From Rebecca billardiae RCC1528 (taxonomy: Eukaryota > Protista > Haptophyta): DNA of 64,000 nucleotides. Below, one piece after another: positions 6,918 through 30,887 of the stretch (the stretch's first letter is position 1; the number at the start of each line of letters is the position of its first letter). A program made the translations under genes and the position numbers. Location of the stretch: positions 3,906,001 to 3,970,000 of the forward strand of contig OZ251224.1 of assembly GCA_965240325.2 (NCBI GenBank), given 5' to 3'. The notes under the pieces are model-generated. The model had not been told where the DNA came from and ran no database searches. It saw nothing but the letters and a program-made list of their open reading frames with translations.

Positions 6918-7488
6918 GCCCGCGGCGTGGCGCATCTGGGGGTGCGCCGTCCGCCCGGGGGCACCGTGCAACTGGCGCCGTGTGGCAAGTGTCTGCTGTT
7001 CAGGAGAGTCGGAGAGTCTGCGTAGTGCGTGGCTCTTCGGACTCAGTACTCAGTAGCTGCTTGGCCAGCTGACTCTGGTGCTGAGCCCGCGTGTAAGAAA
7101 CAATGGTCGGCCGGCGGGTCTGAGCCGTGGCCATGGGACCGGCGGCGCGACGTGTGCGCACCCAGAGTTGGGCAGCTCTGACGCGAGGTATGTGTGTCTT
7201 AGGCTGTTAGGCACGTTGGGCTCCGCCACTCAGTAAAGGCAGGGCTGATGACGACGCCAGCCCAATCGTCTAAAACTGTAGAACTCCCCCCTTGATTCCT
7301 TTGCTCTCACCAGAGCCAAGGGCCCTTGCCAGAGCTCTGCCAGAGCTCGTCTGCGATGCCAACGGTCATCGTCGCGATATGGACAATCTGTCAATCTCCA
7401 CAGCCACATTCTCCACAGCCGACAGCACCAGGTCGCGGGCGGCAGCGCACCGCGCGCTTCGAGGAGCAAGAAGGAGCCGCGCGCACAG

Positions 7489-8859
7489 ATGGACGAAACC
7501 AGCGCCTCGGTAAAGCTGCTTCGGCGCAGGTCGGCGCGAGGTGATGCGCGTGCCACGTACATTCTGGCTCATCGCTTCGCACGCGGAGACGGCGTCGCTC
7601 AGAGTTTGAGCGAGGCGATGCGCCTGCGGCACATCGCCGCCGAGTGTGGGCTTGCCGACGCTCAGGCCACTCTTGGCGATCTTCATTACCGGGTTATGCG
7701 TGGACCGAATCGCGATCTCGTCAAGGCAGCGCACTGGTACCGGCTGGCGGCCGAGCAGGGCCACTCAGTTGCACAGAACAACCTGGGCGTGTGCTGCGAG
7801 AAGGGCAAGGGCGTGCCGCAGGATATGGCCGAGGCGGTGCGCTGGTACCGGCTGGCGGCGGAGCAGGGCTTCGCACAGGCGCAGCTCACTATGGGCGTGT
7901 GCTGCGAGAAGGGCGAGGGCGTGCCGCAGGATATGGCCGAGGCGGTGCGCTGGTACCGGCTGGCGGCCGAGCAGGGCGACGCACAGGCGCAATTCAATAT
8001 GGGCCTGTGCTGCGAGAAGGGCCAGGGCGTGCCGCAGGATATGGCCGAGGCGGTGCGCTGGTTCCGGCTGGCGGCCGAGCAGGGCCACTCAGTTGCGCAG
8101 CACAACATGGGCGCGTGCTGCCAGAAGGGCCAGGGCGTGCCGCAGGATATGGACGAGGCGGTGCGCTGGTACCGGCTGGCAGCCGAGCAGGGCTACACAC
8201 AGGCGCAGTGCAACCTGGGCGTATGCTGCCAGAAGGGCCAGGGCGTGCCGCAGGATATGGACGAGGCGGTGCGCTGGTACCGGCTGGCAGCCGAGCAGGG
8301 CTACACACAGGCGCAGTGCAACCTGGGCGTATGCTGCGAGAAGGGCCAGGGCGTGCCACAGGATGTAGCCGAGGCGGCGCGCTGGTTTCGGCTTGCGGCC
8401 GAGCAGGGCCACTCAGTTGCACAGAACAACCTGGGTGTGTGCTGCGAGAAGGGCAAGGGCGTGCCGCAGGACATGGCCGAGGCGGCGCGCTGGTACCGGC
8501 TGGCAACAGATAGCAATATTTGGCCTGGCGCTTCCTACCAGCTTGGGCGGCTGACACTTTTGGGCGAGGGAGTCGAGCGCGATGTGGAAGAGGGCGCGCG
8601 ACTGCTGCGCAGTGCTTTTGAGCTCGACAGCTCTCTCGACCCTGCGAAAATGCTGGCCGCCGAGTTTGCGGGGGAGCGCGAGGTGGTGTCCAAGTGCTGC
8701 ATGGTGTGCGCACAGTCAGGCCGCCGAACCGTGAAGAAGTGCGACCGGTGTCGCGTGGCTGTCTTCTGCTCTCACGACCACCTGCGGCTAGCGTGGAAGG
8801 CGCACAAGCCGCACTGCATCGAATGGCATCGGACGGCTGCTGCGAGGCCTGACGGCTGA
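7489..8859 (+). CDS. Sel1-like repeat protein with C-terminal MYND zinc finger
   Basis: About ten 36-aa SLR units (AQxNLGVCCEKGxGVPQDMAEAVRWYRLAAEQG). The C-terminus CMVC...CDRCRVAVFCSHDHLRLAWKAHKPHC has the MYND pattern. Confidence 0.92.
   Translation: MDETSASVKLLRRRSARGDARATYILAHRFARGDGVAQSLSEAMRLRHIAAECGLADAQATLGDLHYRVMRGPNRDLVKAAHWYRLAAEQGHSVAQNNLGVCCEKGKGVPQDMAEAVRWYRLAAEQGFAQAQLTMGVCCEKGEGVPQDMAEAVRWYRLAAEQGDAQAQFNMGLCCEKGQGVPQDMAEAVRWFRLAAEQGHSVAQHNMGACCQKGQGVPQDMDEAVRWYRLAAEQGYTQAQCNLGVCCQKGQGVPQDMDEAVRWYRLAAEQGYTQAQCNLGVCCEKGQGVPQDVAEAARWFRLAAEQGHSVAQNNLGVCCEKGKGVPQDMAEAARWYRLATDSNIWPGASYQLGRLTLLGEGVERDVEEGARLLRSAFELDSSLDPAKMLAAEFAGEREVVSKCCMVCAQSGRRTVKKCDRCRVAVFCSHDHLRLAWKAHKPHCIEWHRTAAARPDG
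7771..8505 (+). repeat. Seven near-identical 108-bp coding tandem repeats (Sel1 units)
   Basis: A 108-nt period is visible in the DNA (gtgccgcaggatatggccgaggcggtgcgctggtaccggctggcggccgagcagggc). Confidence 0.92.
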
Positions 8860-9236: not shown

Positions 9237-10910
9237 TCATGATGCGCTGATGGCATCTGACGTTGCGGCTGGCGTCGTCGGGCCCGGCCCGCAAGCAGTG
9301 CCTCCACCATTCGCCGTGCACTGCGTGCAGGTCCGCCGGCCTGCGCCCAGTCGTCGCCACTGCGACTTGGAGAAGTACTGCTTAGGCTGGAGCTCGCCGC
9401 AGCTGCGGCACGTGTCCGCCGCTGTCGAGGCAGTGGGCACGGGTGGCGCCGTTTCCCTCGCGCCTGCGGTCACGTCGTCGCGCTGTGCCGATTCCACCGT
9501 GCCAGCCGGGCGCGCACCGCCGTGGGCGCCGTTGCCAGCCGCCGGGATGGCAGCTTGGCTCTCGCCACTGCGAGTGGCCGTGCCGCTGCTCGCCGCCGCC
9601 GCCGCAGGCTGGCCAGCGCGCGTCGCACGCTCGGCCCCGGCCTCGGCGGCATGCTCGTGCGAGGCGCTCGTCGTGCCGCTCTCCGCGTCCACGCTGTCCG
9701 CGCCCGCCGCGTCGCGCACGCGCCTGGGCACCTCGTGCTGGTGCAACACGCCCCAGTACTGCCTGTGCACGCGGCACACCGCGTTGAGCGTGTGCTGGCA
9801 CGCGCGCGCGACCTGCAGCGCGGCGTGCGCGGCGTGCTCGTCGGCGTGGTGCGCCTCCGGCAGCGTGACGGGCGTGTCCGGCTCGATCAGCGCGCGCAGG
9901 ACCGCGGCCACCCCGATCGCCGTCGTGTGCAGCCGGTACCCGCCCTCGAGCGCGCACACCAGCCGCCCGCCTGCCAGCTTCTGCAGCTCGTGCGTCATGT
10001 GCGCGTACGCGGCCGGCGTGAGGCTCATCTCGCCGAGCGGGTCGCCGCGCGACGCGTCGAAGCCCGCCGAGACGAGCACGAGCTGCGGCTCGAACTGCTT
10101 CGCCACGGGCATCACGATCTGCTCGAACGCCGCGCGGTACTCCTCGTTGCCCATGCCGGTGCGCCTCCAGGGGATGTTGAGGCTGAACCCTCGGCCCGCG
10201 TCCACGCCGATCGAGGTGGCGTCGCCCGTGCGCGGGTAGAAGCCCTTGGTGAAGCGGTGCAGCGAGACGTACATGATGCCAGGGTCGTCGGCGAGCAGCG
10301 CCTCCGTGCCGTTGCCGTGGTGCACGTCCCAGTCCACGATCAGCACGCGCCGCATGCCGAGCTGCCGCTGCGCGAAGCGCGCCGCCATCGCGAGGTTGTT
10401 GAGGAAGCAGAAGCCCTGCATACTTGAGTGGCCCGCGTGGTGGCCGGGTGGCCGGACAAGGGCGAACCCTGCGCGCAGCGATCCCGCGCACACGCGCTCG
10501 ACTAGCGCGAGCAGGCCGCCCGCCGCGAGCCGCGCAGAGTTGGCGGTGTGCTCGTTCGAGTCCATGTTGGCCGCGGTGAGCGGCGCATTGGGCAGGTCGA
10601 GCAGCTGCTCCCAGTGGCGCTCGGAATGGACGAGGAGGGCCTCAGATCGCGTGCAGGGCCGCGCAGCCACGCGCTCGCACTCCGCCGGCAGCTTCGCTCC
10701 CTCCAGGTAGCGCATGATTGCGGTGAGTCGGTCGGGGCGCTCGAGGCCGCAGACCGCGTGCTCGAGCATCGCGTCGTCGTACACCAGGCCGCATGCAAAG
10801 CGCGTGCCGCGGCGTGGGGAGGCTGGTGAGTGAGCTACCGATGAGCTCGCATCCGACGACCGCGCGACCGGCGGGTCGTCGCCGCCCTCGTCGCGCAAGG
10901 CGGAGAACAT
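9237..10910 (-). CDS. Class II histone deacetylase with C-terminal Stc1-like C4 zinc finger
   Basis: Likely start MFSALRD at 10910. HDAC motifs ERPDRL, RPPGHHA, GFCFLNN, DWDVHHGNGTE, SAGFDA and LEGGY are present. The C-terminus reads CRSCGELQPKQYFSKSQWRRLGAGRRTCTQC. Confidence 0.92.
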   Translation of the reverse strand: MFSALRDEGGDDPPVARSSDASSSVAHSPASPRRGTRFACGLVYDDAMLEHAVCGLERPDRLTAIMRYLEGAKLPAECERVAARPCTRSEALLVHSERHWEQLLDLPNAPLTAANMDSNEHTANSARLAAGGLLALVERVCAGSLRAGFALVRPPGHHAGHSSMQGFCFLNNLAMAARFAQRQLGMRRVLIVDWDVHHGNGTEALLADDPGIMYVSLHRFTKGFYPRTGDATSIGVDAGRGFSLNIPWRRTGMGNEEYRAAFEQIVMPVAKQFEPQLVLVSAGFDASRGDPLGEMSLTPAAYAHMTHELQKLAGGRLVCALEGGYRLHTTAIGVAAVLRALIEPDTPVTLPEAHHADEHAAHAALQVARACQHTLNAVCRVHRQYWGVLHQHEVPRRVRDAAGADSVDAESGTTSASHEHAAEAGAERATRAGQPAAAAASSGTATRSGESQAAIPAAGNGAHGGARPAGTVESAQRDDVTAGARETAPPVPTASTAADTCRSCGELQPKQYFSKSQWRRLGAGRRTCTQCTANGGGTACGPGPTTPAATSDAISAS

Positions 10911-13900
10911 GCGCCGCCGCGCCGCTCGCGCCCGATTGCCCCGGACCGTGGTCTTGAAGCTGTCTGGTACTCTCCTCCGGACTGCGCCGCCATCGTGACT
11001 CGGCGGGCACAGCCCGTCTGGGGTTAACCTCACAGGCCGCGGTGGAGCACCGGACTGGGCGTGGACGCCCACCTTGTGATCGACCCGTCGCCGCGGGAGT
11101 GAGCGGTGCGCGTGGAGCCGGCGCGCTCGGGCCTGCGCGGCATGCCGAACGGCCGGTCCAGGAAGCGCGACTTGCCCACACCACCACGTAAGTGCTCCAC
11201 CGCACTCGCCCTGCCCGCACGCGAGGCACGCGTGCACGATTGCCGTGTTTGCGGGCGCGTGCACGTCAGGGGCTGCGTGCGCCCGAATGGCATGGAATGG
11301 CATGCCCGGAGGGGCGTAGTCCGATGGTACTTGCGGCATACCATCGGCCAAACGTAGGCTGCGCTTGGCCGGCCTTGGCCATGGTGTGCTCATGCGTGAG
11401 CACTGCAAGCCCTATCTCACACTGTCCCTATGTGCCCTGCTCGCACGCGCGCAGCCCCTGTCGGCGGTGTGTGAAGCACGGTGCCCGCGGAGATCTCTCC
11501 CGGGGCTCCCTCTGACGTGCTCTTGCCAGTGGCCCAGCGTGTCAGGCGCGTGGAATGGCAGCTGCGGTTGCGCGCGCAGTCGCACGACCTCATGCGGCTG
11601 CTGAGGTGAGCGAGCTTAGCGCTGCTGCGGCTGATGGCCTGCATGGGCGTGCGTTGTTCTGCTGGCGGCACGCGATCGATGCCGGAGCGTCGATGCGGCA
11701 GCCCACGATAAGCTCCAGCCGAGACTTGAAAAGGTTGGCATCGACTGGCAGACGCTCTGGAGGGTGCCGTGCCGTGGCGGGCGTACTCCACGCCTAGGAG
11801 TGGTCGCGCACAGCTTCTGCGCGACGATGAGCTGAGGCTGCCGCCGGCGAGTCCGCCGCCGCCATTGCGGCTGCTTGGCTTTCCAGCCGTGATGTCTGTG
11901 CCAGGCGGGTAGGCAGGTCTCCAGTCTGCATCGCCTCAAGCAGACGTCTCACTATCTAACGCCTCAGCTGCTCGTCTGGCGGCGCCGCCGCCCGACTGTG
12001 GCAGTGTGCGGGCCACCGCGGCGTTACCAGTGCGCGCCTGCCGCAGCCAGTGCTGAGTGCCCTGGCCCGGGCCCCGGGGTCGGGTCGCGAAGGCGGTCTC
12101 GTAGGAGACGATATAGCGCCCGGCGTTGAAGGAGAGTTGTGTGCGCGCCATGTAGTAGTAGCGCTGCCAGACGACTGTGTAGGACCGGCGCGCGAATCAT
12201 CCGATCTGAATCTTATCACCGGCTGGCGGCGGCAGCGGATAGTAACATAGTTTATATTAGTCAGTTACCGTCAGTCTCAATGATGTTACACGATCCGAAG
12301 CGGGCGCGGCGTCGGTCACCGATCAGCCTCACTAAGCAGTCTCTGCTTACTCACTGTAGTCCAGTCACTATAGTCCGAGTGTCCGCCGCGATCTGGCACT
12401 ACGAGCCACGACCGTCTGACAGAGAGTCAGAGTGGTAGTACACGGCCCCAAGGGCGGGTCGGCTCAGTAGTAGCTAAGGCACGGTGATATAGGCTTAGCA
12501 GCGGTCGCAGCCACGAAGGCTATCAGCGTTGGCAGCATCAGCACCAGATCATCCGCGCAGGCCTGGCCAGCATCACTCACATCAGCTGTCAGCAACTGCG
12601 CACCACTGCTATACGGAATACGGTGGCGCTTCGCGCGGCCCGCACAGACGTGAGACGGCCCCGAGTCGCAGGGCGGCAGGCTGACGCGCGCGCCGCGTCG
12701 CCTACCGCGTACTCGTAGGCATTGTACTGATGTGCACTGGCCTCCACGTCGCCGCCACACTCAATCTCATAGTAGGACCGTCGTCGGCCTGTTACCGCTC
12801 ACCGCAGTCATCCACTGCTTGAGACCGGTGCCAGCCTGGCGTGTCGCCCGGCGCGCGGCCCCGGAGGCCAGTACGGCCAGCCTTGCCGACCTGGCACGGT
12901 GATGACGACTCGTTGTATAGCCGGGCAGCACGGCTCAGCACTCGACGCAAGCACGCTGAAGTCCGTGGCCGAAGTCGACCTAGGCTGGTCGTGAGTAGTG
13001 GCGTCTCGCGAGTGATGAGAGACGACGAATGCGTCAAGCTTCCGAGACTGACGACCCGTTCGACGAGGGGCGAGCCAGCTAGCGGTGCTAAGCTTGCCCA
13101 CGGCCATGGTGCCACCGCGCGAGAGAGCATGCTGCTGCTGATGGAGGGCTCGTTATCTGAGGCACCGTGTGATGAATGAAACATCACCGCACAGGCCACG
13201 ACCACAGTCGGCTGCGGGCAAGTTCCAGCTGACAGCCACGAGGGGATTGGCTGTCGTGAAGCTGGTGGTTGGCACCGGGCGAAGACCAGTAACGTGCCTA
13301 CTGCAGTCTTCTGGCTCCATCGCAGGGACTCGGGCAGAGCAGGTGTCCAGAGTTTGAGCAACACCGCCGGGGCAGCCGCCGATCATGTTGCAGTGGGTGG
13401 AGCACAACTGAGGGGTTGCGAGCGCGCGTGGCGCGTGAGGGCGAATGCACACGAGGGAAATATCCGCTAAGTGAGCTCCGACTGGCCAACCGTATCTACC
13501 AGCCACTCGAAACACGCCGCGCGCCCGAAACCCCCGTGGTCCAGCCACCCGGTGCCCTTTCGGGGCAGGCACAGCCCAAACGGTTCATGTGCGTGCAGAA
13601 CGGGCGTGGCGAGTGCACAACCAGCCGCGAGCGCTCACCTGCTCGCACTCCCTCCTCCGTATGGTCTTACCGAGTGCTCCGCTCAGCGACGCCCTCGAAC
13701 GGGGTCACACGGCTCCGCCGCGCGACCAGCCCAGAGGCGCACGCGACACGAGGGGAGGGCCTCGCCGGCTCTCCATCAGCCGCGGCTCCCGAAGTGCCCT
13801 CCCCTCCGCTCCCGGACTCTGTGAGGTCCAGCCCAGCCGCACTCGCGTGATGAAGCGAGTGCGATGGCGGAGAGTACCAGCCAGGTCTTGAAGGTCGGTC

Positions 13901-17201: not shown

Positions 17202-18040
17202 GTTTGATGCCTGCACGCAGCGCGCTCCGCACGGCAGAGGTCGGGACGACCCGCAGCATGAGCCCGGCATCATGCACGCGCCATTCATTTGGACGCCGCG
17301 CGCTGCTGCACAACTTGACAGCCACAACTGAATTCCGCTGAGCCGCAGGCTGCGAGTGTGGGCTTCTTTGAAACTCGGGCAGCGAATCGGCCGTGCCACT
17401 CAGTACTCGCTCCCATGACTGCTCATCTGCTGCCTGCTCAGGCCCGGAGTCACTCCGCACCGTAGTAGTTGACGCGGGCTGACCGTCGGTGCCAGAGTCC
17501 GTCCGCATGAACTCACTGTGAGGCCGGACCGCCCGGTATTCGGTAACTACACTTTCCACAGCAATCCGCGGATCTGAGACCGTGTCTTGGACTTGAGTCT
17601 TCCGGGGCGGCCGAGCGCGGTGCGGGTGAGTCAGGGTGGCCGATCCGGCCCGCACGGCCGCACTTCGCACTTTCGCCGGACTCCGATCAGACGCGGACCG
17701 ATGACTCGATGTCGTCATGTGACATGTCGATCCGGGCGATACTATAGAGGTCGAGGACGTCGCGAGTCGTCGTCGAATATCCTTCCGAATCGGCCAACGG
17801 TGGGCGGTGCCATTTCCCCGAACACGGTTGGCTGTACTTGTAGTTGTGAAGCTATGATTGGCTGCCGCACGTGTGCAGCAAGTGGCGGTCTTTTTCCTTA
17901 CAGCAGTATTTGACGGCCGTGGTGCGCGCGCCGAGGTTCGACGAATCCCGAACTCCCCTCGGCCGCGCTGCGAGCTCGGCCGCGACGCTCGTTCGGGACC
18001 ACCCACGGCCGGCTCAAGCCGCCGACGCACGACAGGCATC

Positions 18041-21000
18041 ATGGCGACTGAGGAGCCGGAGAGCGGGCTGCCACGGCGGGTGTGCGACTACATCGCGGAC
18101 TCGCTCGTGCAGCAGGGCGTGCGCTGCGTGTACGGCGGGCACGGCGGCTCGGTCATCCCGCTCATCAACGCGATCACGAACCACAAGGACCTGAAATGGG
18201 TGTACACACGCAACGAGGGGGCCGCGTCGCTTGCGGCGGCGGCGGAGGCGAAGCTGACGGGCAGGCTGGCGGTCTGCGTCGCCACATCGGGCCCCGGCGC
18301 CTCGAACCTCACCACCGGCCTCATCGACGCGCTGCAGGACCGCGTGCCCGTGCTCGCGCTCACCGGGATGAAGACGACGCAGGCGATCGACCTCTCCGAG
18401 TTCCAGGCGATCCACCAGGAGCAGCTGTTCCGCGCGGCGGGGCTCGCGGTGTCGCAGGTGATCGTCTCCGAGTCGGCGGTGCCGGCGATGCTGCGCAACG
18501 CCATCGCCGTCGCCATGCGCGAGCAGACGGCTGTGCACCTCGCGCTGCCTGTCGACATCCAGGCGCGTCCGCTCGTGCTGCCGCCGATGCACCGCGAGCT
18601 GCGGCTGGTGTCGCAGATGGAGTACGCGGCGAGCGAGTCGCGGATCCGGCAGGCGGCGGAGGCGATCGCCGACCCCACCCTCCGCATCGTCGTCGCGCTC
18701 GGCCACCACGCCGCCATCGGCATCACCTCCGACCACGCGGGCTCGCAGCACAACCCGTTCGTGCGGCTCGCGGAGACGCTCAACGCGCCGATGATCACGC
18801 AGCTCGACGCGAAGGGCGTGGTGGACGAGTCGCACGCGCTGGCGTACGGCGTGATCGGCATTTTCGGCCAGCCCGGCCTCGACTCGGCGCGTGCCCTCGT
18901 CCGCGCCGCCGACGTGATCCTGCTCTTTGGTGTGAACCGGCAGGCGGTCGACCTGATCAGCGACGCGAATTTCAACCAGGTGCGGCGCGTCGTCGAGTTT
19001 GAGCCGGACGCGGGCTCGGCGGCGTACCACCGGTGGTACGACTGCGAGGCGGTGGTACTCGGCGACCTGATGGCGAACGCGCGCCGGCTCGAGGCCGCCG
19101 TCGCCAACCTGCGCGACACGCCCGCCGCGCGCTCCGCCGCGAGCCTGCTCGGCGACGTGCGACCAATCAACGAGGACGGCACGCACTGGTCGTGGCTGCT
19201 GACGGGCGGCTGGCGGCAGGACGTGATGCTCGACGACGACGCGGAGAATCACCGGCCCGCGCGCTTCCGCGTCGAGCACGAGAAGCGCGAGGGCTTCTGC
19301 CACCCCGCCGAGCTGCTCACCGCGCTCGCGCCACAGCTCGAGCCGTGCGACGTGCTCGCGATCGACGTGGGCGACGTGACTCTCTGGTCGTCGCTCTGCC
19401 TGTGCCTCTCGGGCGGGCAGCGGGTGCTCTCGTCGCAGTGCATGGGCACGATGGGCTACTCGCTGCCCGCGGCGATCGCCGCCTCGCTCGCGCGGCCCGA
19501 GCGGCGCGTCGTCGCCATCGCCGGCGACGGCGGCGCGCAGAGTGCGCGCGCGCGCGCCGCCCGCAGCTGCCGCGTCCGCCGCGACGCGCGCGCGCGCGGG
19601 CGCCCGGCTGATGACACGCGCGCGCGCTCGCCCGCGCCGCGCCGCCCTCGCCCGCCCCATAGTGACGATCGGCGAGCTCGCCACGGCCAAGCAGCACGGC
19701 TGCACCATCACGTACATCATCTTCAACAACAACCTGCTCGGACGCGTCCACTTTGGCTTCGAGGGCGTCTCGGGAGACGTGATCGACTCGCCGGACTTCG
19801 TGGCGCTCGGCCGCGCCTACGGCTTCGACGGGATGCACGTGCGCTCGGCCGACGACGTGCCCGCGGCGCTCAAGGCGGCGGCGAACCACACGCGCGGCGT
19901 GTACATCATCGAGGTGCGCACCGACCCCGAGCTGAAGGCGGAGTACGCTCGGATGCGCGACACGGGCGCCTTCCTCGTGCAGCTGCGCACGCAGCTCGGC
20001 GACGTGCTGCCCTCGGACCTGCGGCCGTCGGACATCCGCAAGCTGATCGCGTTCGACGTCGACGGCGACGGCATCCTCTCGGCGGAGGAGCTCCACGCCG
20101 CGCGCAAGGTGCTGCAGAACCTGCGCGCGACCGTCGACCCGCCCACGTTCCTCAAGGTGCTGCGCACAGGACAGCTCTTCAAGAACCCCGTGCTCACGTG
20201 CGTCAAGCAGCTGCTGCAGCCGCTCGACCCGTCGCCGTTCGTGTTCAGCGCGGGCGGCGGCTCGGGCTCGCAGCTCCACGTCGTCGGCTCCGTCGAGATG
20301 GTGCTCGAGTCGTACGTGCCCGACCACCTGCGCACGGCCAAGTGGGCGGCGGGCGCGTACAAGGCGGGCTTCGAGACGGGCGCGGTCGACGCGATCGAGG
20401 GCCTCGGCGAGATGTGCATCTGCGACGGCACGGCGTACATCCGCGAGACGCAGGAGGGGCGGCCCGATTTCTACGAGACGCGCGTGGCCGAGTCGTTCCT
20501 CACCACCGCCGCGATCCTGCTGCCCAAGGAGGCGGTGCCGGACTGGAACGTGCTGATGGAGGCGCGCCTCACGCCCAAGGGCGTGCCGTTCGTGCGCACA
20601 ATTAACGACCTGTACGCCAAGGTGCAGGCGCCCTTCGTCTTCTGCGGCGAGGTGGAGTGGCACAAGTGCGACGTCACCTCGCTCAGCCGCGCGCCCGTCG
20701 ACGGGCTCAGCATCCCCGCGCACATCCACCAGTACTACTGGTGCGCGCGCGAGGCGGCATCGAGCGCCGCCGGCCGTGCGCGCGCCTGCGCGCGCGCGCC
20801 ATCGTCGTCGTTGCCGCCGCTCCCGCGCCCGCGCCCTCGCGCTCACGCCTCGCCGCGCGCCGCTGCGTCCCCGCGCGCGGCCACCACGCCGTGCCCGCGG
20901 CGTGCACGCAGGGAGCCGGGCGCCGTGCTGCACAACGTGCGCACCTTTGTGTGCGGCACGGCCGCGCGCGACGAGAGCCCGCGCTCCGAGATGGGCGAGC

Positions 21001-21230
21001 AGATCTTCTCGCGCATCTTCTACGCGGACCTGTCCAAGCATCACGCCGAGTCGTCGACGCGGATCTCCGAGGCCGTCGGGCAGCACCAGCAGCTGCACTG
21101 CCACGCGCACCTGATCACGTACCACGGCAACAAGCTCGCGGACGTGTGGCACCTGCAGCCCGACTCGGTCGTGCGCGCGTGCAACCTGCAGCTGTACAGC
21201 ATCGGCTCGCTCAAGGTGCTCGACATCTGA
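18041..21230 (+). CDS. ThDP-dependent acetolactate synthase/pyruvate oxidase-family enzyme fused to an EF-hand and an alpha-acetolactate decarboxylase-like domain; exons 18041-19541, 19663-20740, 20912-21230 (965 aa)
   Basis: N-terminal motifs are TRNEGAASLAAAAEAKLTG, TSGPGASN, EFQ and GTMGYSLPAAIAA. Splicing 19542-19662 restores the ThDP motif GDGGAQM...FNNN. The EF loop is DVDGDGILSAEE. The C-terminal domain has GEMCICDGTAY and HAH...H. The ThDP part is secure; the ALDC call is moderate. Confidence 0.85.
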
Positions 21231-22323
21231 GCTGCTTAGAAGTCCGAGACACGGACTAGCTTAACAGGGACAGAGTCGCGCCGGCCAGCCACAGCGCGGG
21301 ATGCCGGTGCCACGGGCTGCATAGACGGTGCACTCGAATTGCAGCACCAGGCTCCGCGGTCGGACTGGCCCGTCCTAGTAGTAGTACTGACCCGATCACG
21401 GCGCGGCTGATGGCAACGCCAGCCACCTCGCCGCTCCGCTGCGCCGAAAACCGTCGATCTGCGCGCACCGCGTGTGACCGTGTCCAGCGCGTGCTCCAGA
21501 CTCAGAGTCCATCAGCTCCATCGCCGACTCAGGTCTCATCGCCGAGCCCGGAGGCTGCACATGACTGGCAGTGGCATGAGACTGACTACAGTTAACTCAG
21601 ATTTAACGTGCACACGACAGTAGTTTTACGCTGCACGCGTACTGTCTCCGTCTTCGGAGAGCGTGCGATGAAGGATGGCGCGGCAACCTGCCACCGTGAG
21701 CCTTACGCACGTTAAAACAAATAAACTGTAGTGCCGCTGCTGGCATCACTTCATTCATCATGACTACGATATACAAACTGTAGGTACAGCTCTCCATTTG
21801 CATGCGCGACGATACTTTAATATACTGATGTACAGTTTACTAAGAATATAAGAGAGGCACACAGCTCAGGCAGGCGAGATTGAACAATACGATCCGGCAT
21901 CATTGACAATCGAAAGGTCGTGCTGCCTTGATGAATAATGGCCCGCGGTGCAGGGCGGAGCGCGCAGCGTGGAGCCCGCACCAGCGGGCCGGAACCACGT
22001 TTCAAAAAGATCTTTGATCAAGAAAAAGGGACGCGGGGGCCGATTTTTAGGGCTGGCGGAGACCGAGTTTCGAATTTTGAGACCCTCTCTACAGATGCAT
22101 CACGGAGAAAAAAACCGCGTCCACGACATTCCCCTAATCAATCGTGGACGGCCGGGCGTGAGAGTTGAGAGTTCACTTCTGTGTGAAGTAGGACGGTTAC
22201 AAGTCCAATACAAGCGTCAGCTTCTTTGAGGCTATTTTTGCACGTCCTTACGGGATCAGCGAAGTAACCAACCGATATATATATTGGCTTCGTCGGGGTC
22301 GTATTCACTACTGGAGAACATTT

Positions 22324-22557
22324 GCACCGCGCTTCGTATTCATATGTATGGTTCACGCAGGCATAAAATCGCTTCGTCGGGGTCGTATCCACTATACTGG
22401 AGAACATCATTTGCACCGCTTCGTTTTCATACATTATAATGCACCGCGCTTCGTATTCATATGTATGGTTCACGCAGGCATAAAATCGCTTCGTCGGGGT
22501 CGTATCCACTATACTGGAGAACATCATTTGCACCGCTTCGTTTTCATACATTATAAT
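22324..22557. repeat. Perfect 117-bp tandem duplication, with a partial third copy from ~22288
   Basis: 22324-22440 is repeated at 22441-22557. Confidence 0.92.
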
Positions 22558-27314: not shown

Positions 27315-29467
27315 TGTGATGGCTGATGCGGTTCCGGTGATCCGGTCGACGGTCGTCTGAACGTCATCATCAGACGTCTCCCGGATCCCGATTCCGCCCC
27401 CCTCCGTATACTATTTGGAGACGACACTGGTCGCGTAGTCTACTTTGCATGTACTGCGCGGACAATGGTACAAGACCGACATGACGCGGACATGATGGCC
27501 CACGGCGCCCGGCCAAAACTCAAAGTTTAAAACTGAAAACAGCGAGTCAATAAAAGATCGTCATATTATTTATTATAATATGATAATTAAAAATCAATAG
27601 TAACTATTTGGCGCGGAAAAAGAGCTGGTGCGAAAAAAGGACGAGGTCTGGTGGTGAATTATTTATTTTGCTTATTCGAAAAGTCAAGGCCCCTTTAGCG
27701 TCCCACTTCCATTTCCGAGCTCCTCGAAATAACATGACTATATCAGAAATGTGGACGGACGTAAGAAAATTCGGCTAGACATGGAACGACGACGGTTCAA
27801 ACGCGATTGGCTGATGCAGGGTTCATTCAAACATTTATTAGGACGACTCCTATTGATCGCAACTAACATGACGATCATAGCTTTGCGGATGAGACTTCAC
27901 GAGTTGCAGCGGAATGAGTGCTCGCTGTAGGACATATGCTCTGCCTCGCCAGACGTGCGCTATGACCTAGCAGCACGGCCCGCCTGCGCGCAGGCAGCAC
28001 GTGTAGTTAGTCTCCCAGATGCGCCTCGTCGAGTTGAGCACGTAGGGCCCACGAACGTCGAAATAAAATGACGAGCGAGAAAAGGCGATGCGAGGAAATC
28101 TTTTTTGAATTTCTGAGAAGTGTGACGAGTCAGATGAGATCTGAGGCGGCTCCAGCTCAGCCGCGCGGCGCGTGCAGAGCGCGCGCGCCGGGCGGCAGGC
28201 GGCCAGCGTGTCACGCACGATATATGTCACAGCGCAGCATCAGACGCAGGCCGATGCTACACTCACTGGCGCAGCTTGCTCAGTGCCTCCTGTCAGCCCT
28301 GCAGGTAGCGTGTCTGCCGCTTGTCGAGCAGCCAACATCTCGGAGCGTCAGCGCGACCGCCGGGGCCGCTCCAGAGTACCACGAGCAGCTTGACGGCTGC
28401 TCGGCACGAGTGTCATCTCGTCCAGCATGCCGCATGTCGGCGGTGCTCGCTACGACCACCTACCTACTGACTCGGCTGCGACCGAGCCCATCCAGTTGGC
28501 TCCGACTCAACCGGCTCTTCCATGACAGCCGACCGCCCAGCGTCCCCGCGCCACGCAGATTGATGTTGGCACGCGCGGCCGCTCTGAGCTTGGCGGGTGT
28601 CAGTCAGCAGGTTTCGAATTTCTTCCACCGCGTTTCGCTCAAAATAAAATTCGATCTTCCCTTTCGCCGAAGTGCATTTCAAACTGACTCAGCCACCGAG
28701 TCGCACCGCCATTTGCACTCGCAGCTGCCGGGCGTTGCTTCGCAGGTGCCTTGTCCACCTTGAAATAGGTGCGCGTTAGGGTGATATGGAAATCCATTGG
28801 ATGGAGAGTCCACTCGTGGACGTACTCGACCGTATATTCCGTGACGTGCATGCCGTACTCGTCCGAGTATTCCGTGATGTTGGTCTCCTGCGCGGCGGTG
28901 CGAATACGCCGCCGCGCGAGCGCGAATGCGAAATGAGCGGGTGCGACGCTCGCGCGCATGCAGCGCGCGCGTCGCCGGTCAAGCGCGCGCCGAGACAGTG
29001 GTGCTGACGGCCCAGGCTAGGTGAGCCGGCGATCACTAGGAGCATCGCGACCAGAACGGCGGCCGCACAGCCGCACACGCTGCACGCGTGCGTCGCCATG
29101 TCTTGCTGTCGGCGCGCAGCCGCACGCCTAGCCCGCCGCTGCGTCCGTGCCTGCTTGGCCACGGCTGAATTGACCGTGCTGGTCTCGGCGGTGCGGAGGG
29201 AATTGCGATGCTCTTGCGAGGCGTACGTCATGGTCTTCTGCGCGCAGATGCGAGCCGGGCGCTGTGCCTGCGTCGGCGACCGTGTGGCGAGGACCCGCGG
29301 TCCCGCGCGTGCTTCACTGCTGTTGGACAGCTTTCGCGCGCGTTTCCAAAAAACAGGAGTCCGGAGAACGTCCGGACGGGAGCGGAAACGACGTGCGGGC
29401 TGCGGCCGGCCCGGCGGGGCGGGCCGGGCATCTAAGGCCGCCGTGCACGGTCGACCGGCCGGCGCAC

Positions 29468-30887
29468 ATGCACGGCGCGATCACGCTGCTGGTGCTGGGG
29501 GGTTGCGGCCGCATTCCCCCGATCAGTCGGCCGCTTGCCTCTCTTCCAGCCGCGCAGATGCTCAGGCGACGTCCGCCGCGCTGTCCTCCTGGGCTCATCG
29601 TGCGAGCTGCCGCTCGCAGCAGCCTGAGTCCCGACGACATCCCGAGCCTGCCTGATATCGCGGCATCAGACCAGAAGGATGCTGCTGTTGTTCGGACACT
29701 AGGCATCATGCTGCTCACAGGCTTTGTCGCCTACGAAACTCTCCCCTTCATCGTCGCCAGCCTCGACGTTCTGAGCGACGGGCTGGTTGGCAAGGATACG
29801 GCGTCACTGGCCGTGACGGGGGTGTTCATGGTCTCGCTCTCGATCATCTTCGGTACACTGATCTCCATGACGGCCAACGTCCTTCGGCAGCGCACGCTCA
29901 GCGTACGCGACGTGCTGTACCGCGAGACGGCGTGCATCGACGCGCTGTCGCACACGCTGACCAAGCTGTACATGCGGGACACTGATCAGCTGCTCGAGGC
30001 GAGCGCCTGGCGCGCCGAGCGCATGCGACCCGGGCGGCACTGCGCGGAGCTGAGTGTGGACGGCCCCGTCACCATGCCCCCCTCACGCCCCCACCGACGG
30101 CACAGGTGCAGCGCGCGTTGTACGAGTACTGTGGCTGCCTCCGGCTGCAGATTGCCGAGACCGAGCCCGAGTCTGCGCGGCAGGAGGAGACGCTGAAAGC
30201 ACAGCGAGATGCCATGGTGCGGGTCTTGCGAGTGCTCGCGCGGCACTCTGAGGAGGAGTTTGCGACGACAACCTACCGATCGTCGCCAAGCATCGCCAAC
30301 GACGCGCACTTTCGCGCGTGGGACATGGTCGCCAGCATCGGCCAGCTGCGCATGTCGAGGACGGCGCACCTGGAGGCGGCATTCCCGTTTGCGCACTGGG
30401 CGCTGCTCGGCCTCCTCGCCCTCTGCCTGCCGCTTTCTCTGGTGCTGCTGCTGCTGTGGAGCCCGTACAGTGAGACGGTCAGCCATGCCGCCGGTGCGAG
30501 CCGCCTGCAGCCAATGCGCGCGCGCCACGCTGGCGTGTGCTGGTGGCGGCCGTGCCCGTATCGCCACCCTCCCCCGGGGGCCAACGCAGACTAATACGAC
30601 CGCGCGCCCTTGCGTCCATGCGCCGGCCACCATGGCCATGCTGCGTGATAGGTATGCGCCTGCTCCTTGCCTTCATCTGCGCGATCCTCGCCTCGGTCTT
30701 CAACCTTCTCGAGGACATGAACCAGCCTTTCACAGGCCTCTACGCCATCTCCACGCGCCGGTTGACTGTTGTTGAGAGTGGCATCCGAGGGTACCTCACG
30801 CTTGCAGGCGGAGTGATGCCCGAGACAGACCCGACCGTACCACAGGCTACGGCGCGGCCCGGGACCCAGGAATCACCAGCGTCGTGA
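29468..30887 (+). CDS. DUF4239 (bestrophin-like) membrane protein; introns 29999-30105 (GC-AG) and 30470-30651
   Basis: SLSIIFGTLISMT...LYRE, RMSRTAHLEAAFPFAHWALL and LLEDMNQPFTGLYAI fit DUF4239-type motifs. The two introns join three ORF segments in frame. Confidence 0.7.

Follow-up and report, generated by a model that had tools for sequence, protein, structure and literature searches.

A 64,000-nucleotide stretch of the genome of the haptophyte Rebecca billardiae RCC1528 (contig OZ251224.1, positions 3,906,001 to 3,970,000, hereafter the window) carries on its forward strand a three-exon gene whose single product joins an enzyme that depends on thiamine diphosphate (ThDP), a helical linker with an EF-hand loop, and a C-terminal domain predicted to share the fold of acetolactate decarboxylase (ALDC). 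The explanation toward which we lean is that this one gene specifies a pyruvate-to-acetoin enzyme in one protein: the ThDP half likely condenses two pyruvates to acetolactate, the C-terminal domain likely decarboxylates acetolactate to acetoin at a three-His metal site, the EF-hand loop between the halves possibly adds calcium control, and the pathway as a whole would serve overflow metabolism. A preliminary description of the locus had read it as a fusion of the bacterial genes alsS and alsD, for acetolactate synthase (ALS) and ALDC. In that literal form the claim is not sustained, as the ThDP half scores far below the relevant cut-offs and lacks the AlsS signatures, trees that place it with AlsS or with acetohydroxyacid synthase (AHAS) are rejected, and the decarboxylase half lies outside the ALDC family PF03306. 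Judged by sequence, both halves come from families without annotation of their own.

Structure of the gene

Joining the three exons (Table 1) yields 2898 nt, that is, 965 aa and a stop codon. The two GT-AG introns and single 965-aa protein of the preliminary description are upheld both by this joining and by homologues that run uninterrupted across the two junctions. P0004 and P0005, 987-aa proteins on JGI contigs of 3.3–3.5 kb, align with the spliced product end to end at 66% and 62% identity overall (57% and 52% for the C-terminal domain) and show no insertion at the two junctions, and P0041, which is 82% identical to the window protein over 551 aa, has the same residues across junction 2. 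The proposed A/TG split of the Met501 codon also stands, and the Pfam TPP_enzyme_C profile breaks exactly there, with profile positions 1–59 in exon 1 and 62–150 in exon 2; in P0006 and P0182 the intron-1 position is read through unspliced. Frame-keeping GT-AG pairs number 10 near intron 1 and 2 near intron 2, and because intron 2 is itself in frame and free of stop codons, splicing there needed support from outside, which the homologues above provide. The GC content at third codon positions is 0.96–0.98 across all four coding parts, and intron 2 read in frame has a GC content of 0.93 at second positions. Every motif quoted in the preliminary description is present.

The neighboring genes (RING, histone deacetylase, Sel1-MYND, amino-acid transporter and ribosomal S3) are ordinary eukaryotic ones, which points to a eukaryotic nuclear gene. 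An artefactual fusion, stop read-through and bacterial contamination are ruled out by the homologue alignments, these neighbors and the coding composition, and the fusion gene is confirmed as real. About 135 nt upstream of the start codon, a pyrimidine run followed by CAG (window 17890-17910) may be a splice acceptor of the 5' untranslated region.

Table 1. Coordinates in the window of the gene and its principal features.
Feature	Position	Strand	Description
Exon 1	18041..19541	+	start Met, ThDP PYR domain (residues 13-127), middle domain (236-335), PP domain until the GDG motif
Glu59	18215..18217	+	conserved position (31/31 eukaryotic clade rows), taken to be that of the ThDP-activating glutamate
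Intron 1	19542..19662	+	121 nt, GT-AG, splits the Met501 codon; homologues have an intron at the same position
Exon 2	19663..20740	+	remaining PP domain, helical linker with EF-hand loop, initial 172 aa of the ALDC-fold domain
Arg528	19743..19745	+	clade signature (36/36 rows); corresponds to Phe479 of Lactobacillus plantarum pyruvate oxidase and to Met of AHAS/AlsS
EF-hand loop D632-E643	20055..20090	+	single loop; Pfam E 0.003, below cut-off; helix-loop-helix in the P0004 model
ALDC-fold domain (predicted)	20226..21227	+	residues 689-965, spans intron 2
Glu750	20409..20411	+	aligned with ALDC Glu65
Intron 2	20741..20911	+	171 nt, GT-AG, stop-free, in frame; missing from uninterrupted homologues
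Exon 3	20912..21230	+	end of the ALDC-fold domain including the His triad, then stop codon
His924, His926, His940	21102..21152	+	aligned with ALDC zinc ligands His194, His196, His207

The C-terminal domain

The C-terminal domain of the preliminary description is present, at ~277 aa rather than the ~300 aa first given. These last 277 aa have no match in Pfam, NCBIfam or the PDB sequences, and the suggested check against the Pfam model AAL_decarboxy (PF03306) gave nothing over the cut-off for the window parts or for P0004 and P0005. A profile search with the domain, at an E limit of 0.001, returned 152 relatives, most of which are ~250–330 aa long and stand alone, and superseded a word-based search that had found no shorter homologues among 1626 candidates. 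Neither PF03306 nor DUF1907 matched any of the 125 members scanned out of the 150 listed from these relatives; one Chlamydiota family member matches PF03306 at E 3.9e-4, below the cut-off. The ESM Atlas gave no usable match. By these searches, the domain defines a family without prior annotation.

The fold was modeled on the domain of P0004, 57% identical to that of the window, from an alignment of 135 rows (pLDDT 92.9). ALDC ranks first when this model is searched with Foldseek, as the preliminary description had anticipated, and all 12 listed rows above rank 15 are ALDCs (E 4.7e-9 to 7.3e-7), with C11orf54 and PPC proteins after them. Aligned with VIA-align, three ALDCs give Z scores of 19.1, 18.5 and 18.4 with a root mean square deviation of 2.5–2.8 Å over ~204 residues, compared with 13.7 when the partner is C11orf54; the first chain that does not belong to the fold group reaches 3.5. 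An HHalign comparison with 14 canonical ALDCs (probability 95.2, E 2.8e-8) places the Glu and the three His in register. All four residues are kept in the window protein, P0004 and P0005, and they occur together in 87/135 family rows; at the position of Glu750, Glu is found in 103/133 rows and Asp in 29/133. The His motif noted earlier is present as well, with its triad corrected to H924-x-H926...H940, since H922 is Gln in P0004 and P0005. The three-His site would presumably bind zinc. Together, the fold, the profile alignment and the gene context of bacterial relatives described below strongly support the ALDC-like character that had been proposed for this domain, which in the model has the ALDC fold and metal-residue set yet falls outside PF03306.

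The earlier caveat that the ALDC Arg is out of register also proved correct, as T839 aligns with Arg145. A Lys or Arg lies four residues past T839 in 92/135 rows and might act as a substitute, to judge from the alignment. Elsewhere in the family, a subgroup of the domain alignment has Asp in place of the Glu and has lost the His ligands, two stand-alone members (P0212 and P0220) look secreted or lipid-anchored, and one member is from Mastigamoeba.

Bacterial relatives and the alsS gene

Genomes scanned with an alignment of a six-protein subfamily as query gave 12 loci in Legionellales, Chlamydiae, Thiotrichales and other bacteria. At 9/12 loci (L086 among them) the stand-alone domain adjoins an AlsS that scores over its curated cut-off, and PF03306 is found in 0/12 of the genomes carrying these loci. 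The pair at L089 is divergent, with a 146-aa open reading frame (ORF) between the domain gene and alsS. We then consider 300 sampled Chlamydiota genomes, two of which are also among the 12 scan genomes: the domain family is present in 24/300 and an AlsS over cut-off in 9/300. In eight of the nine alsS genomes a family gene lies at most 18 nt from alsS and PF03306 was not found, while in the ninth (G336) an ordinary ALDC lies 58 nt upstream and the family is not matched. A Fisher test gives p 4e-9, a value that ignores relatedness and is set aside. At these bacterial loci the domain family occupies the slot next to alsS that alsD would fill. This is of interest with respect to sponge chlamydiae, for which PMC9666466 describes acetolactate synthase as present and the decarboxylase as present in some only, and invokes spontaneous conversion for some of them.

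Family genes without alsS share no common neighborhood among 57 ORFs. In a quick tree of 107 selected rows (two of which, L086_no and L093_als, are the same gene), the alsS-linked genes fall in one part and the fused eukaryotic domains outside it, in a poorly supported position, so function transfers by family and not by shown orthology. Two of the family-alsS pairs have neighbors that fit with the pyruvate node, as one lies beside pyruvate:ferredoxin oxidoreductase (L081:2713-7985) and another beside a 2-oxoacid dehydrogenase E1/E2 cluster (L084:1892-8444). The family gene of L090, from a metagenome-assembled genome labeled Chlamydia trachomatis, groups with another Chlamydiota genome, and the label may be loose.

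The ThDP half

The PYR, middle and PP domains, Glu59 and the GDG...N motif are all intact, which places the first half of the protein in the ThDP decarboxylase-like superfamily. Membership in a named family did not follow: the best 25 NCBIfam models reach at most 242 bits against cut-offs of 500 or more throughout. P0004 scores 193 of 551 and 220 of 510 bits against the catabolic ALS models TIGR02418 and NF006378 (162 and 177 bits for exon 1 of the window), 224 of 538 bits against the AHAS model TIGR00118, and 242 of 742, 217 of 792 and 198 of 638 bits against the pyruvate oxidase equivalogs (PoxB/SpxB). The preliminary description had called for a tree of this part with PoxB, AlsS and AHAS; built on 74 rows, with topology tests on 30 rows, it unites the window, its protist homologues and five bacterial sisters in a 36-row clade (support 100) of its own beside the pyruvate oxidases. 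Besides Arg528, the clade signature comprises His34 (30/30 eukaryotic rows with a residue there), Asn58 and Asp445 (35/36 rows). Position numbering is taken from PMC3534367.

An Arg in this place might bind a second 2-oxo acid by its carboxylate. On this evidence the ThDP half belongs to a protist clade of its own and is neither AlsS nor AHAS. Its members occur in a red alga, dinoflagellates including Symbiodiniaceae, diatoms, Tetraselmis, a cryptophyte and Sphaeroforma, and their automatic names conflict.

In metagenomes, an initial scan produced 75 pattern matches, none of them a relative, and a second gave 80 loci that are mostly ~30% identical, none of them with the domain family. Directly after one bacterial sister ThDP gene lies a 275-aa ORF (L001:2313-3137) with GE and HxH..GH motifs. 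Its HHalign probabilities, 1.7 for ALDC (E 0.029) and 7.5 for the domain family, are too low to decide, and the ORF is not counted; it may represent a third family with the ALDC fold. In plasmids, searches found nothing that matches this ORF and only distant ThDP matches.

Linker and N-terminus

The EF-hand loop that had been noted after the ThDP enzyme is confirmed as a canonical loop within a conserved 90-aa helical linker. Its pattern is found in 8/8 homologues that carry the linker, three of which have His or Ser at position 3, and there is one loop per chain only. In the full-length model of P0004 (pLDDT 85.7, pTM 0.69) the linker forms a helix-loop-helix at a pLDDT of ~70–80, with helices 636–645 and 655–671 flanking the loop and low-confidence hinges at 609–615 and 690–693. 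The loop may bind calcium. The ThDP domain begins at residue 13 without a leader, in agreement with the preliminary description, and this is common to P0004, P0005, P0233 and the Cyanidium protein. The missing leader suggests a location in the cytosol.

Domain arrangements in the clade

The search for the same architecture in other algae was successful in Cyanidium caldarium (CDCA_CDCA08G2524), which like the window protein, P0004, P0005, P0041, P0182, P0183, P0186 and P0189 has the ALDC-fold domain at the C-terminus after the EF linker. The domain is C-terminal and lacks the linker in P0338/P0221, P0215 and P0238, and it is N-terminal in Durusdinium, Cladocopium (both Symbiodiniaceae), P0030 and P0222 (E 1e-11 to 1e-16 for the first three, among 182 proteins; P0222 by profile search). 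P0045 carries an N-terminal DUF1907/C11orf54 domain (E 2e-36); for multidomain forms of C11orf54, a CRYL1 fusion is the only one named in the consulted part of PMC12337341. A cupin occurs at either end in Tetraselmis P0012, P0028, P0043, P0050 and P0017 (weak Pfam matches) and by motif only in P0026 and P0040; this uncharacterized partner carries a P-x-H-A-H-P motif, and the linker that precedes it in Tetraselmis P0012 is related to that of the window (E 1.3e-5). The cupin may perform the same step as an unrelated decarboxylase. Alexandrium P0014 and P0025 have an N-terminal EF-hand pair, and the Phaeodactylum "carboxylyase" and the Sphaeroforma and Diacronema proteins stand alone.

Fusion at both ends means at least one rearrangement or second fusion, and the clade tree does not separate repeated gain from loss. 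The recurrent fusion to decarboxylase-fold domains is the main reason to think that the ThDP half makes a beta-keto acid.

Other features of the window

Repeated units that appear AT-richer by eye lie downstream of the gene at 22280-22500. The Sel1-repeat and MYND-finger gene occupies 7282-8859 and the histone deacetylase gene 9237-11411, and a bestrophin-like domain is encoded at 29174-30196.

Discussion

The system most similar to the window gene is the bacterial alsS-alsD (budB-budA) pair, in which a ThDP enzyme is likewise paired with a protein of the ALDC fold that has three His and Glu65, and the stand-alone relatives of our domain sit beside true alsS at the alsD position. The window differs in being a single eukaryotic polypeptide with introns, an EF-hand linker and a ThDP half that is not AlsS. 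The predicted fold is shared with ALDC structures (PDB 4bt2, 6inb, 1xv2; Z 18–19) and the Glu and metal triad are in register, whereas identity to ALDC structures is only 11–14% and the domain has longer loops, no Pfam match and no Thr58, Arg145 or Glu253 tail. C11orf54 (DUF1907, PDB 1xcr) belongs to the same fold group and in P0045 is joined to a ThDP half of the same clade, but it is farther from the window domain than ALDC is, acts on another substrate, and has no DUF1907 match in the window protein. According to PMC12337341, it is a decarboxylase of a beta-keto acid (beta-keto-L-gulonate) with changed second-shell residues.

A number of observations weigh against a pyruvate-to-acetoin enzyme. 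Acetolactate synthesis by the ThDP half is proposed only because decarboxylase-fold domains are repeatedly fused to it, at one end or the other, and many members of the clade are unfused or have a cupin in place of such a domain. The best PDB and NCBIfam matches of this half are pyruvate oxidases, its clade is sister to PoxB/pyruvate-oxidase-like rows (support 98), and topologies that unite it with AlsS (p-AU 0.006) or with AHAS (p-AU 0.0095) are rejected. The AlsS signatures (GAK Lys, HQ, QT.G and M-V-x-x-Q) are missing, as are the AHAS motifs RFDDR, PKD and MVRQW. The one culture-collection bacterial sister that was found has no decarboxylase neighbor. Within the domain family, 16/24 family-bearing Chlamydiota genomes have no AlsS over cut-off, two of the 24 (G420 and G462) carry an ordinary ALDC as well, only 2/5 gammaproteobacterial matches have alsS within 1.5 kb, and all these counts come from related and incomplete genomes and so are not independent; moreover, the fused domains do not nest within the alsS-adjacent ones in the tree. 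In the domain itself, HHalign places A741 at ALDC Thr58 and T839 at Arg145, the structural match stops at 4bt2 residue 232, which pairs with the last residue of the model, leaving no Glu253 tail, and the profile alignment stops ~20 residues short of the tail Glu; Thr58, Arg145 and Glu253 are described in PMC9090609 as conserved residues of the ALDC active site. Finally, a review of algal fermentation, searched for these terms, mentions neither acetoin nor butanediol (PMC3660698).

The same two-step logic could apply to 2-oxo acids other than pyruvate (such as glyoxylate, which would give tartronate semialdehyde, or mixed aliphatic/aromatic acids), the domain then decarboxylating the resulting 2-hydroxy-3-oxo acid to another acyloin, and we give this a minor though appreciable share of the probability. 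The ThDP active site is unlike that of AlsS/AHAS at His34, Asp445 and Arg528, the second shell of the decarboxylase differs from ALDC as it does in C11orf54 with its other substrate (PMC12337341), and P0045 carries DUF1907. A diatom gene whose best match is ALS bears the annotation of a putative glyoxylate carboligase in PMC2173943; it may belong to this clade, possibly as the Phaeodactylum member named "carboxylyase". Against other substrates, AlsS is the only characterized partner seen beside the domain family, and glyoxylate carboligase falls outside the best 25 NCBIfam models (E 5e-24 vs. 4e-41 for pyruvate oxidase). The hydroxy-keto-acid synthases CsmA and BbmA are among the PDB matches and speak for such substrates; the retention of Glu59 speaks against glyoxylate, given that the Escherichia coli glyoxylate carboligase presumably has no glutamate at this position.

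It is rather unlikely, in our estimate, that the ThDP half is instead a flavin-dependent pyruvate oxidase making acetate, with the ALDC-fold domain clearing acetolactate that arises from a side reaction or another enzyme. Pyruvate oxidases (L. plantarum POX, E. coli PoxB) are indeed the nearest named ThDP families by both score and tree, Phe121-Gln122 and the DVGD motif are as in L. plantarum POX, His stands at the POX His89 position in 6/31 eukaryotic rows, and many clade members have no fused domain. The window clade nonetheless separates from them with full support, has His34, and scores at most 242 bits where their cut-offs are 638–893; recurrent fusion to decarboxylase folds at both ends would also be unexpected for an oxidase. 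The Arg at Phe479, a residue that helps electron transfer to FAD, and the Gly at Glu483 argue moderately in the same direction, as Phe is found in only 3/8 PoxB-like rows. A metal- or ligand-binding regulatory module with an ALDC fold and no decarboxylase activity seems to us quite improbable. The missing equivalents of Thr58, Arg145 and Glu253, the 48/135 family rows that are incomplete or without the full Glu/His set, and the cupin that in Tetraselmis P0012 follows a related linker at this position would suit such a module, while the window protein, P0004 and P0005 keep all four residues, the family replaces alsD beside alsS, and C11orf54 decarboxylates with other residues at these positions (PMC12337341).

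The pyruvate-to-acetoin enzyme stays our preferred explanation. More tentatively, and with clear doubt, we would extend it to a calcium-sensitive acetoin pathway in one polypeptide from red algae to coral symbionts, with a separately arisen ALS activity in a pyruvate oxidase-related clade, a second ALDC family without the classic Arg/Glu in the alsD slot of Chlamydiae/Legionellales, and the cupin as a third, unrelated solution. No description of the fusion was found in the literature searched, which held few subscription journals.

If true, this would give these protists a route for pyruvate overflow and correct the conflicting automatic names of the clade. The domain family would also explain bacteria with alsS but seemingly no alsD. 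A decarboxylase without Arg145 and Glu253 would put the ALDC mechanism directly to the test, and 2,3-butanediol engineering could profit from a natural acetoin enzyme in a single chain.

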